Positions 1-6,000 of a stretch of DNA of 62,020 nucleotides are shown piece by piece (positions within the stretch are counted from its first letter, which is position 1; each line of letters begins with the position of its first letter). The stretch is from Escherichia phage ArgO145. The position numbers were made by a program. Location of the stretch: the sequence record NC_049918.1; one strand, given 5' to 3'.

Positions 1-3000
1 TTATATCCATTTAACTAAGAGGACATTGTTGCGTATTGATTTTGGTTGTTCACCATATGACTGATAATACCGTCTTTATGGTTTTAAAATCAAGGTGTAA
101 GTTTGTTTTTGTTCATGGTTGATTATCTTCTTTTGCGTTGAAAAGTGTTTTGTTCACTTGCTAATGCGTACATATTGAGTACAGAATACATTATAAACTT
201 GTGTACAGGATATAAAGCATTGGCACTGAGCGACACCAAACTACGAGGCCTCTACGGAAAACCCTACTCTGGCCCTGCTGAAATCACCGATGGTGACGGG
301 TTAAGTGTGCGGATTACTCCAGCAGGAACTATCACGTTTCAGTACCGTTATCGCTGGAATGGTAAGCCAGTACGTCTTACTGTCGGGCGCTATCCGTCTA
401 CTTCACTGAAGGACGCGCGTGTTATCGTCGGTGAGATGCGCGCATTGTACATGAAGGGAGTTAACCCTAAAAATTATTTTGCGCCCAGTGACGGCGAACT
501 GACATTAAAAGAATGCCTGGATCAGTGGTGGGATAAGTATGTTACTGATCTGAAACCCAATACACAGACGCTTTACAGATCCGTCGTGTACAACACTATG
601 TACACACAGTTTGAAGGCTCGCCAGTTGCCAGTATCCCAGTATCGGCATGGGCTCGTTTCTTTGACAAACAAGAAAGCCTCAACAAGAAAAAGGCTCGTG
701 TTTTGTTGTTACAACTGCGTTCAGTTATTAACTGGTGTATCAGCCGCCAGTTAATCCCATCATGCGAATTACTCAAGCTTAGTGTTAAGAATATTGGGAA
801 AAAACCAGATGTAGGGAGTCGTGTACTTACCTATACGGAACTGGCAAAAATTTGGCTGGCGCTGGAGAACTCAAAAGTAGTTACTTCCAACAAGGTGTTA
901 CATCAATTGCTATTGCTATGGGGGGCCAGACTTTCTGAGCTACGTCTCGCGACAGCCAGTGAGTTCAACATGGAAGATCTGGTCTGGACAACCCCAAAAG
1001 AGCATTCAAAAATGGGGAATATTATCCGGCGTCCGGTATTCACTCAGGTTAAACCTTATATCGAGAGATTGCTTAATGCGGGTTTTGATGTGCTATTCCC
1101 CGGGCAGGAAATAGATAAACCTATTGATCGTTCGTCGGCTAATTTGTACATGAAAAAGTTAAGGGAGAAAATTGATATTCCTGAATGGAGAACGCATGAT
1201 TTTAGGCGTTCTCTGGTAACGAATTTATCTGGGGAAGGAATTATGCCCCACGTCACTGAAAAAATGCTGGGGCATGAACTTGGGGGAGTTATGGCCGTGT
1301 ATAATAAACACGACTGGTTGTCGGAACAGAAAGATGCGTATGAGTTGTATGCTGATAAAATTTTCTGGCACGCTAAACAGCTCGGTTAATTCCTCCGGCT
1401 TTAAGCCATTGTTCAACGGCCTGACGACTATATCGCGCCGGATGAGTAAGTACTGGTTCCGGGAATCCGTGTTTTTTTCGCAAATTATACAAAGCTGTGC
1501 GCCTTTTTTGTAACAAATCAGAAACCTCTTTTTCGGTCATTAAGTTGACTTCCATAGTATGCGCTCCTTTTCTACATGTATTTCAACAGCCTGATATCAT
1601 CCACGCCCTAAAGGACGTGGATTCCCGCTACGTTCACTCTGACAATTCGTTGATCAAGTCACGGTATTTATTCAGTTCTTGCAACGCCTTACATGCACCC
1701 TCCCATCGTTTCTGTTTCCGCCCGGCGCGGCGCGCTTCTTTCCGTGATTTACGTAGCAGGTCACCTATAATGTTGTTCTGCACTGGCTGAACTGGCTGAA
1801 CTGGTTGAACTGGTTGAACTGAATCAATATCTGTTTTGCTTCCAACTCCCTCTACTGCCTGCCAGATGCCGTTTTTTACCTTTACGATCCCCTGGTTTTT
1901 CAACTTCCACAGCGTATCAATGACGTCATTCAAATCAATATTGAGACCTTTAGAAATGCTGTCGGCTGTTGCTTTTCCTAATTTGTTCAATTCTGTGAGT
2001 ACGGCGTTCATTTTTTTCTCCTGATATTTTAATGTCGGTGGGGGTGTTATGCGATTGGTGAGGTGTCAGCTTCTTCTACCAGCTTTTCCAGTTCATCCAG
2101 CTTTCGGGAAAGAATTTCACCAAACAGATGAAGTTCTGTATCTGCTGTGATCGGGATCGGAACAAAGCGTATTCCACTTCTGGCAAGTTGATTTGCGATT
2201 TCCAGGCACTGCCTTAATTCAACTGGTGATGCCTTTGTCAACGTCGTTTTTTCGCTCATTGGTTTTCTCCAGAAATTTAACAATACCCGGAACCATCTCA
2301 ATGGATGGTGTTCCGCATTGGTTACCCCAGACATCAAATCCATGCGAGGTGTGACGGGCGAACAGTTCTATCCGGGGAACATCGCCAAGAAGTTGCACAA
2401 GTTTTTCTCGCGCCATATCCGGCTTGCGGGAGTGATCAAGGCGCGGTGCAGTGAATGACTGGATTATTCCGGCGTTAATGCGTTCAGGCAGATTTCCTTT
2501 CACTGCAAAAAGGCAGTCTTCGCTGTTAGCGCGAGTGGTGCTACCCATACCCATGACCAGCTTGTCGGTCTGTCTTTTCCCGCATTTGTTCCAGGTTAAT
2601 CCTTTCATCGTCACCAGACGAAAGCCCCACGCTTCTACAACCTTCAATGCTTCAAGTGGTTGTGTAGGCACCCACCACATAGCCAACAGGCAATTATCGG
2701 CTGCCAGTTCCCATACCGGGAGGCGGCAGATATCCAGAAGACTCATGACCGGATATTTAAAACTTGCACCGCGTTGACCATCGGTTGCTTTGTCTCGGAA
2801 TGTCCAGGGGGGATCTGCGTAAATGAGAGTGTATTTTTTCGTCATAGCGCGTTTTCAAACTCATCAATGTAAAGTCCTGCTTTAATCAGTCGGCGACGGC
2901 GTTCGGCCTTTTGCACGTATTCCTCGCGACAGTTTTTTGCTGCGTGTTCACGGCTTCTGCGACTGAATGGAGGAACGGCATTGCGTGAGCGAGGTGTGTC

Positions 3001-6000
3001 ACGACGAGGATTTGATTCGAGGGAGAAAAAGCGATCAACGATTCCGGTGTCTGTGGTGAATGGTTCTGAAGCCTTTATTTTCACAACCTTACTGCCCTTT
3101 GTCAGGCCGCGAGCTACCTTGTTGAACTCGCAAAGTGAAACACCAAATTTCTCTGCTATTTCACTGCCAGTAACAGGACGACCACGAGACTGAATCATCC
3201 AGGTGACGCGTTCTTTTAACCCACGGAAGGCACCGGGCCTTCCAGAACGCCTGTAGAAAGCGATCTGTTTCAAATTTTTGTCTCCAGATATGAAAACCCC
3301 GACGGGATGTCGGGGATGGTAGGGGAAGTTACAGGCTTAACGAGAAGCCTTTTCGGGAATTTCGATCTGACAGTCTTGAAATATCCTGTAGCGTGCGGCG
3401 CATTTCTTCCGTCAGATGTTTGAAGGCGTTAAATTCAGCGACAGCCGCATCGACGTTATAGCCCTTGCTGTGTAGTTCGTTGAGGATACGCATGGTTGGG
3501 CTTGGCATGTCGAAGAGTACAGAAACGTCCAGGTTAAGAGTTTTTCGATCAACATAGCTCATCATGGAGTAGGGGTGGTGCTCTGAAAACCACGATAGAG
3601 GGTAGTTGATAGATAGTGTTGATTCTGGAAGCTGAAGTTGTTCTGGGATTTTTTGACTGAAATAGCAGTCTTCCAGTTTTTCGAACACTTCCCACGCCCG
3701 ATCGGTTTCGAGCATTTTTGCGTGACGGGCTGCGCCGCGTTCTGTCCAGAGGATGAGGGAGCGAACGTTACGGGCGATTTTCACAGAGTAGTTAAAAGCT
3801 ACTCTGTGCTTGAACTCACGTAAAGTTTCACCTTCAAGTTTGAAGAAGTGTTTTTCCTCAATGAAACGACCTTTGTTTTCGTGGTGATTCTGGCGAATAC
3901 GAATAGCTTCTGTGCCGTAAAGGTGCGCCAAAAGTTCGGTAGTGATAACGGGGATCTGCTTGTAAGTAATCGTGGAGAGTGTTTCAACAGAAACTTGAGT
4001 TGTCATTATGACGCCCTCGAGTGGTTTCTAAACTATCACCACCGTTAGGTTCGAATCATCGGGTGGTGAGACGTACAGGGTTCGAACTACCGGGAAACCA
4101 ACCGGCGAGCTTTTCAGCTCCCCTATACGCCCCACCATAATTCAGATGTGCGCGTGCATACGACAATAAAAAACACGCTCGCGGCGTGTCTCTGTCGCGG
4201 TTTCTATCCGGGGTTCGAATCCCGACGGTCAACTCGACCGTGCGAAGAATATAATCCCGGATATGTGTTGTCGTCAACAAGTGGCGTGCTATCATCGAAT
4301 AGTGTTCTATCCTACTCAGTGAGGTTTACCATGCGTACAACCCAACAATTCAGCATTACATTAACTAACGAAATGGCTGACATGGTGCGCGCCCGTGTGG
4401 CTTCCGGTGCCTATGCTTCAGAAAGCGAGGTCATTCGTGAAGGGCTTCGCGCACTGAATGAGCGCGATAAAGCAATCGAAGCGTGGTTAACGCATTCAGC
4501 CGCCCCCTCTCTTGATTCTATCCGCGAAAATCCAAACAACGGACGCTCCATTTCACAGGTTCGCGCCGCGATTCGATCCGGGAAGTAATCTGCATGACAT
4601 ATGAAGTCATCATTACTCCTGAGGCCGAACAACAAATAATCAACCTGCACAGGTATATAACGGAGAAAGCAGGGAACGTCATTGCTGACAATTATGCCAA
4701 TGCGCTTCTTGATTATCTTGATGGGTTTTCTACATTCCCGCATCGGGGCAATAAACGCGATGATATTCGCCAGGGGATGCGGGTAACTCATTTCCGCCAC
4801 AGAACGATTATTGCTTTTGCCGTTGATAGCAGAAAAGTCTTTATTGTCGGTATCTATCATGGTGGGCAAAGTTATGAAACCGATTTCTTATAAACTTTTA
4901 CCCACATCATTCCGGTGTTAGAATTAACCGTCCGCCCCCTCTCTTACTGGCGGATTCGTAGGCTATATAAATCAAAGATCCCGGCTCATGTTTATGTCGG
5001 GATCTTTTTTCGGCGATTTATCCCCAGCGGCAAATCGAATACACCACCAGCGCCACCGCCATCGCAATTCCTACCGTTGTGAATGCTTCAGGCCAGGTCA
5101 TCGTAAAATATCCTCCACGCTTATCAGTCCGTTCCGCTCCAGATAACTCATCGCCTTATCCGGTAATTTGCAGTCTGGCTTCGCTTTCCTCAGTTGCCAG
5201 GTTAACTGCTTTACCAGCATGGTTAACTCATCGACCAGACGCTGATATCCCACTGGTTTGTATTCATGCAATTTACCGGCTGGCTCTGCTGCCAGCGATA
5301 CCAGTGCGATTTCCAGAACAGCAATATCCATCTTATATGTGCGGATGATGTCATGGTCGATTGTGCCCGGTATGCACAGTCTCTGTGTTTCAATAGTCTC
5401 CTCTGCGTGAGCTATTAACTGCTCTCTGGTAAAAGTCGTCATGCCGTAGCCCCTTCTTGATATTTTTCAAACCAGAACACAACTGGGTCAGATTTCATTT
5501 CAACCAATCCCATACGAACCAGCGCTTTGCCTTTCCCGGACGCAAGGAATTCACGACGACCATCACTGATAATTCGCCGATAATCTTCCAGACTACTGCA
5601 ATGCTTGTGCAGATTGCATGGGTGGCATGCCGGAACCATGTTGGATATATCGTCACGTTCCTGGTGAAGCATATTTCCATCAAAACGAATGACCGGTTTT
5701 ACATGGTCTGCATGCCACTTTTCGCCAAGTTCGCAGCCGCAATAAGCACAGCGACCGCCGAACTTCATGCGCAGCTCTGCACGTTGTTTTTTCGTCAGTG
5801 CCATATCAGCTTTCCTTATACGGATTAATTTTATTGTGCAGTGTGCTGAACGACGCCCACACCACGTCGTTATACAATTCAATAACTGGCTCAATTATTT
5901 TCACGATAAACCAGACCAGTAATAGCGGGGGTATCGGTATCATCAACACGATAAATATAATGAGAAACAAAAATTCTGTCGCTCTACTTTTTCTCGGATA

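Follow-up and report, generated by a model that had tools for sequence, protein, structure and literature searches.

The window analysed here, a stretch of 62,020 nucleotides (nt) from Escherichia phage ArgO145 (NC_049918.1), carries two overlapping minus-strand genes, gp6 and gp5, which in our estimate (probability roughly 0.6) encode a two-subunit methyltransferase, built from an MT-A70 catalytic protein (gp5) and a winged-helix partner (gp6, or PNB-2), that acts on 16S ribosomal RNA (rRNA) in lysogens and promotes spontaneous prophage induction. The gp5-gp6 system is already known and published: the locus was studied in phage phiPA8 by Gong, Chakraborty and Koudelka (NAR 2024; PMC10810198), and its authors present the product as the first prophage-encoded RNA methyltransferase to be reported. 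The identical gene pair modulates the spontaneous induction of the Shiga toxin 2a (Stx2a) prophage and hence Shiga-toxin output. The anatomy of the locus, the integrity of its motifs, its identity with phiPA8, the fold of the partner protein and the conservation of the pair across divergent prophages come from the present analysis; complex formation, RNA preference and phenotype are taken from the literature.

The window is an Oslovirus PA2-type Stx2a prophage (Sepvirinae). Its positions 1500-4100 match the Stx2a-converting phages Stx2a_F765 and VT2phi_272 at 100% identity and phages PA8 and PA2 at 99.7-99.8%; all four phages are Oslovirus PA2, Sepvirinae. The locus occupies the left prophage end, with the integrase and excisionase genes on one side and the early-left operon on the other; all of its genes lie on the minus strand and, by open reading frame (ORF) listing and direct reading, their coordinates are those of the GenBank/RefSeq coding sequence (CDS) calls of identical phages. 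The proteins of 208, 143, 225 and 70 amino acids (aa) are each 100% identical to gp5, gp6, gp7 and gp4 of phiPA8, respectively. Compared with the phiPA8 holoenzyme (M.EcoPA8orf6770P, also named M.ECPA8_3172P, plus PNB-2), the window has the same gene order, overlaps and terminator and no difference within the locus; it differs from phiPA8 in the absence of IS629 and in the repeat count of a DUF1627 gene. In phiPA2, IS629 breaks gp5, with lower spontaneous induction and amoeba killing as a result (PMC10810198). Such a disruption is ruled out for ArgO145, as the IS629 copy of phiPA8 and phiPA2 is missing from the window and the gp5 allele is intact and phiPA8-like.

The gp5 gene (M.EcoPA8orf6770P; 2219..2845, minus strand) encodes the 208-aa MT-A70 catalytic subunit. 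An initial annotation of the window, made by a model from the bare sequence, had placed a DPPW-type MT-A70 methylase within 2047-3273, and the Pfam search bears this out: MT-A70 (PF05063) is matched at E=1.3e-22 and 81 bits (cutoff 23.9) over the full profile (1-172 of 172). As the domain spans residues 5-176 of 208, gp5 has no room for a separate target-recognition domain. The same annotation had proposed checking the catalytic motifs for degeneracy, and all of them are intact on alignment. DPPW, catalytic motif IV (aa 11-14; codons at 2804..2815, minus strand, by direct reading), aligns to the DPPW of Tetrahymena MTA1, as do HSRKPD and IELFAR to their counterparts in that protein; across 32 gp5 homologues (60-88% identity) DPPW is nearly invariant, and HSRKPD, IELFAR and WGNQ are invariant to near-invariant. 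The C-terminal motifs HS-KP, ELF-R and WGNQ are, by comparison with METTL3, presumably the part that binds S-adenosylmethionine (SAM). Among proteins in PDB, gp5 resembles MTA1 (E=7e-13) and METTL3 (4e-5), and these values improve to 5e-17 and 2e-9, respectively, when the family profile is used. An AlphaFold model of gp5, built from the 32-sequence alignment, reached a mean predicted local distance difference test score (pLDDT) of 51 and was discarded. On sequence grounds gp5 is a beta-class N6-adenine methyltransferase, predicted to transfer the methyl group of SAM to the N6 of adenine; published SAM consumption and the phenotype of a DPPW-to-APPA mutant both support methyl transfer indirectly (PMC10810198).

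Immediately upstream lies gp6 (PNB-2; 2842..3273, minus strand), whose product, a basic winged-helix protein of 143 aa, serves as accessory subunit to the methyltransferase. The gene starts with TTG at 3273, preceded by a Shine-Dalgarno (SD) sequence, GGAG, 8 nt upstream (3282..3285), and this start is supported by the N-terminus (MK..FYRR.G), which is kept in homologues. PNB-2 is strongly basic (pI 10.8), contains an arginine-rich segment at residues 89-130 and ends in an invariant acidic motif, RRRLIxxGLYIDExExxL; its fold is a winged helix, with the three-helix bundle and the beta wing both present. Taken with the published biochemistry, these properties suggest that PNB-2 supplies nucleic-acid binding and acts as a targeting subunit. 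The gp6 stop codon overlaps the gp5 start codon as ATGA (2842..2845), so that the upstream helix-turn-helix (HTH) gene of the initial annotation is indeed joined to the methylase gene. We considered whether this junction could by itself be evidence for a partnership, and rejected it as such: in 77 of the 80 IMG/VR loci that hold the closest gp5 relatives, the start of the methylase gene and the end of the upstream ORF share 4 or 8 nt, whatever that ORF is (PNB-2, a PerC-like 99-aa protein, DUF1317-like proteins of 52-58 aa, small membrane proteins or an 82-aa protein), and the junction is thus ordinary operon packing.

The published experiments on the identical proteins carry the functional side of the argument. 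Plasmid-borne wild-type gp5 restores induction and amoeba killing, and the DPPW-to-APPA mutant fails to do so (PMC10810198). Purified gp5 alone has near-background activity on RNA and on DNA, including dam- or dam-/dcm- DNA, and His-tagged gp6 co-purifies gp5, with which it can be cross-linked at a 1:1 ratio (PMC10810198). The gp5-gp6 complex consumes SAM >13-fold faster with RNA than with DNA, favours 16S over 23S rRNA and, above all, 30S subunits, and shows no activity on RNA of strains that already express gp5-gp6 (PMC10810198). Deletion of gp6, and then of both gp5 and gp6, lowers induction progressively; ribosomes of methylase-positive lysogens resist Stx; and nanopore signal differences give positions 832, 1098, 1100, 1132 and 1190 as candidate sites in 16S rRNA (bioRxiv 10.1101/2023.09.20.558713). 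Read together with the anatomy of the locus, the gp6-gp5 operon would give rise to a two-subunit SAM-dependent N6-adenine methyltransferase in which gp5 would be the bare catalytic core and the translationally linked PNB-2 would bind nucleic acid through its winged helix, arginine-rich segment and acidic C-terminus. The 1:1 complex would then methylate mainly the 16S rRNA in 30S subunits of the lysogen, and this methylation may keep translation competent and so lead to more spontaneous prophage induction and, in turn, to more Shiga-toxin output.

According to the published work, gp6-gp5 is expressed in lysogens from a stationary-phase-induced promoter (PMC10810198). On the minus strand from 4005 to 3273, that is from the gp7 start to the gp6 start, no match to the sigma-70 consensus at 9/12 or better was found; matches lie at 4277..4248 and 4032..4005, upstream of gp7. 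A terminator scan revealed an intrinsic terminator-like hairpin between gp7 and gp6 (3289..3315, minus strand; CCCCGAC-ATCCC-GTCGGGG followed by a T-run), only ~10 nt before the gp6 SD, and the gp7-gp6 terminator has been cited as the element that keeps gp6 from being expressed together with gp7 under a T7 promoter (PMC10810198). The gene beyond the hairpin, gp7 (PNB-1; 3329..4006, minus strand), encodes a 225-aa ORF6N antirepressor-like protein (Pfam ORF6N, 1e-19). It is not co-expressed with gp5 and gp6 and is present in few methylase-carrying strains (PMC10810198), and is probably not part of the enzyme.

We infer that rRNA is the physiological substrate, and several observations weigh against this. 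The rRNA claim derives from the work of a single laboratory, namely a SAM-consumption assay with colorimetric readout and one comparison of nanopore data, and according to the authors no modified nucleotide has been chemically identified (PMC10810198). The orthologue of O104:H4 (HUSEC2011), which differs from gp5 solely by A55S and is accompanied by an identical PNB-2, is equated with M.EcoGV (PMC10810198), an enzyme listed as a GATC-specific 'Dam homolog' (PMC6602927). In relatives, classic DNA methylases (Dam PF05869, D12, N6_N4 and C5) are encoded after PNB-2 homologues. PNB-2 itself is missing from about half of the E. coli genomes that carry the methylase allele (the locus occurs in 258 of 5426 complete E. 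coli genomes and both genes in 132 of the 258), and a PNB-2 homologue occurs without a methylase in 3 of 19 species-level loci.

These observations bear on a different explanation, namely that the enzyme is primarily a Dam-like, GATC-specific phage DNA adenine methyltransferase with an anti-restriction or epigenetic role and that its activity on rRNA is a side activity or confined to the test tube. Apart from M.EcoGV, it draws support from PADLOC, in which gp5 matches the MTase_II (type II MTase) model, and only that model, at 4e-86, from the fact that the closest solved relative, ciliate MTA1, methylates DNA to N6-methyladenine (6mA), and from related prophages, whose cassette holds DndB and a PAPS-reductase (DndC-like) protein besides the DNA methylases named above. 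Against it, gp5 with or without PNB-2 was near background on dam- and dam-/dcm- DNA (PMC10810198), and methylome studies of strains carrying homologues gave no extra motif. The literature is thus in conflict, in that GATC is listed for M.EcoGV and was not seen in vitro for a protein identical to gp5; the GATC methylation ascribed to M.EcoGV was observed upon plasmid overexpression without PNB-2 (PMC10810198). The 'Dam homolog' label also disagrees with the sequence, as MT-A70 was the sole significant match of gp5 in the Pfam search, with neither D12 (PF02086) nor Dam (PF05869) found; an NCBIfam search of all three locus proteins gave zero model matches. No restriction endonuclease gene adjoins gp5, whose neighbours are PNB-2, the Orf63-like gene, the DUF1627 gene and the ORF6N antirepressor gene. 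Since GATC sites in E. coli are already a target of Dam, new protection is not expected in this host and an anti-restriction benefit there is not evident. On balance we consider a primarily DNA-directed enzyme unlikely, though it is the main alternative. By the same token, the suggestion in the initial annotation of layered anti-restriction or epigenetic DNA methylation holds up in part: the RNA preference of the complex and its near-background activity on DNA (PMC10810198) speak against it, and the second-hand GATC listing of M.EcoGV and the DNA-methylase cassettes of relatives keep it under consideration.

Beyond the published work, comparison with relatives indicates that the system, viewed as a family, also occurs outside Stx phages: prophages of many Enterobacterales contain relatives of the MT-A70 protein (60-89% identity) and of PNB-2 (~54%). 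The gp5-like MT-A70 family comprises 1263 clusters at E<=1e-5 among 1301 word-sharing candidates and occurs in prophages of Escherichia, Salmonella, Klebsiella, Serratia, Pantoea, Pectobacterium and others, and specificity for Stx phages is limited to the near-identical gp5 allele. The PNB-2 family is tiny, with 65 clusters at 90% identity and 63 at 50% among 1.84 billion representatives. To see what follows PNB-2, we surveyed 80 IMG/VR loci, of which 24 contain near-identical and 56 divergent copies, the latter (~54% identity, 48 distinct sequences) usually located just after a YqaJ exonuclease gene. An MT-A70 gene comes next, with the ATGA overlap, in all 24 near-identical loci, and in 40 of the 56 divergent loci, 32 of these 40 with a 4-nt overlap; with 44% identity to gp5, the MT-A70 protein beside divergent PNB-2 represents another subfamily. 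Because the ATGA-coupled pair thus persists at 54% and 44% identity in two genomic contexts, the survey supports a real functional pair. The other 16 divergent copies are followed by Dam PF05869 in 10 cases (some of them C5-Dam fusions) and by N6_N4 in 3, and the 3 that remain have no recognised methylase, 2 of these being short-flanked. At the species level (19 genomes of Enterobacter, Raoultella, Citrobacter, Yokenella, Pseudescherichia and others), what follows the PNB-2 homologue is a cassette with MT-A70 in 3, Dam PF05869 in 7, N6_N4 in 2, D12 in 2 and unknown genes in 2, and in the other 3 nothing separates the PNB-2 homologue from a TraR/Orf73-like gene. The linkage between PNB-2 and the methylase is therefore not obligate, since classic DNA methylases interchange with MT-A70 and sometimes there is no methylase at all.

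The arrangement in these non-Stx enterobacterial prophages (loci L086-L194) is a YqaJ exonuclease gene, a PNB-2 homologue, a hypervariable cassette and the TraR/Orf73-like gene. Cassette contents include MT-A70, Dam PF05869, D12, N6_N4, C5 and C5-Dam or C5-D12 fusions, as well as DndB, the PAPS-reductase (DndC-like) protein and unknown proteins of 250 aa and 256-265 aa. In the window, the YqaJ homologue lies at 12542..13216, ~9 kb from PNB-2. A PNB-2-headed cassette of DNA-type methylases has, in this form, emerged from the present analysis, and it brings the choice between DNA and rRNA as the true substrate into sharper focus: as the PNB-2 slot resembles a DNA-modification cassette, a DNA substrate stays plausible. 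One way to accommodate this, which we put forward tentatively and regard as doubtful, is that PNB-2-type proteins are exchangeable partners or leader genes for several small phage amino-methyltransferases that are unrelated to one another (MT-A70, Dam PF05869, N6_N4 and D12), in which case DNA, of phage or host, would be among the physiological substrates of the Stx-phage enzyme, either alongside 16S rRNA or in its place. This would be compatible with both the cassette synteny and the GATC listing of M.EcoGV and, if true, PNB-2 would direct a DNA-type methylase now to DNA, now to rRNA.

The same surveys can be read in the opposite direction. PNB-2 would then be a conserved gene that borders a recombination hot spot and serves in DNA binding or regulation, its adjacency to the methylase would be positional, and the methylase would work on its own or together with host factors. 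In divergent prophages the gene after YqaJ stays the same, a PNB-2 homologue, while those that follow it vary (four adenine-methylase families, C5 and unknowns) or are absent, and close MT-A70 relatives have unrelated upstream genes, as described above for the PerC-like, DUF1317-like and small membrane proteins. O157:H7 EC4115 carries an identical methylase and no PNB-2. A profile search of the 1.84 billion representatives gave no PNB-2/methylase fusion in the 63 clusters, all of which are stand-alone. Set against this are the published co-purification, the 1:1 cross-link and the change in substrate preference, the intermediate phenotype of the gp6 deletion and the persistence of the coupled pair at high divergence in both contexts, and we therefore hold a purely positional association to be very improbable and retain the two-subunit rRNA methyltransferase as the preferred interpretation. 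An apparent Rosetta-stone fusion suggested by phrog_359 (329 positions, of which gp5 matches 118-324) was rejected, as the long gp5 homologues contain no PNB-2; their extra length comes from fusion to an upstream PerC-like ORF or from extensions at the C-terminus. Cases in which the PNB-2 N-terminus is joined to other domains were likewise set aside as deletion or recombination chimeras. In three loci (L006, L018 and L175, the last from EC4115) the methylase is identical and an unrelated ORF occupies the place of PNB-2, keeping only the last ~11 PNB-2 codons (ALYIDEFENAL), which places a recombination junction ~30 nt upstream of the methylase start.

The composition of the complex invites comparison with eukaryotic MT-A70 enzymes. 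In the ciliate complex MTA1c/AMT1 and in METTL3-METTL14, a small catalytic core depends on partner subunits to bind its substrate. The former (MTA1-MTA9-p1-p2) produces 6mA in DNA and the latter N6-methyladenosine (m6A) in mRNA, and both have the catalytic domain and motifs in common with gp5. However, MTA9 and METTL14 are themselves MT-A70 paralogues, whereas the phage partner is an unrelated winged-helix protein and there is no second MT-A70 subunit; furthermore, the complex encoded in the window is bacteriophage-encoded and its reported substrate is rRNA.

The initial annotation was also correct in stating that the phage encodes two adenine methylases of different families. A scan of all window ORFs of at least 80 aa for [DNS]PP[YFWH] gave only one other motif-bearing ORF, at 17519..18988 (minus strand), which encodes a 489-aa gamma-class NPPY methylase (Pfam Eco57I, 3.3e-9; phrog_1600), and no homologues of Dam PF05869, C5 or N6_N4 were found in the window by tblastn. 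This methylase adjoins BsuBI/PstI endonuclease domains, forming a PstI/BsuBI restriction-modification module of the M.EcoGIII type; O104:H4 Stx phages share this region at 99.7% identity, and the specificity of the M.EcoGIII-type Stx-phage module is CTGCAG (PMC6602927). The PstI/BsuBI-type endonuclease gene (16568..17522, minus strand) is split into ORFs of 216 aa and 131 aa, with the Pfam domains divided over both. The split is caused by a 1-nt insertion at ~16911: a C-run (GCCCCCAC) is one C longer than in VT2phi_272, whose copy of the gene is an uninterrupted CDS of 317 aa; LC645438.1 (Stx2_09E025) has the same split version as the window. This is either a true inactivation that leaves an orphan CTGCAG methylase or a homopolymer sequencing error.

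Downstream of gp5, the small overlapping ORF that had been noted with an overlap of about 40 nt proves to be gp4 (2047..2259, minus strand), a 70-aa DUF1382 protein whose gene shares 41 nt with the 3' end of gp5 and is preceded by an SD sequence of its own, GGAG (2267..2270), 7 nt before the ATG. It matches Pfam DUF1382 at E=9.9e-28 (96.5 bits against a 27-bit cutoff) and PDB 8DSB at E=3.6e-11. The latter structure is that of lambda Orf63 (PMC10869804), a developmental protein of the exo-xis region, and like Orf63, gp4 sits between the early-left genes and xis; it differs from Orf63 in being a divergent paralogue with its gene start inside the methylase gene. Adjacent to gp4, the DUF1627 gene (1634..2011, minus strand) contains a 9-nt tandem repeat around 1785..1825 that encodes (VQP)n. 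The window has one repeat unit fewer than phiPA8 (125 aa compared with 128 aa), and this is the only protein-level difference between the two across the int-to-gp7 region. Finally, GATC is under-represented in the window as a whole (161 observed, ~241 expected from base composition), and CTGCAG occurs 11 times, with ~15 expected.

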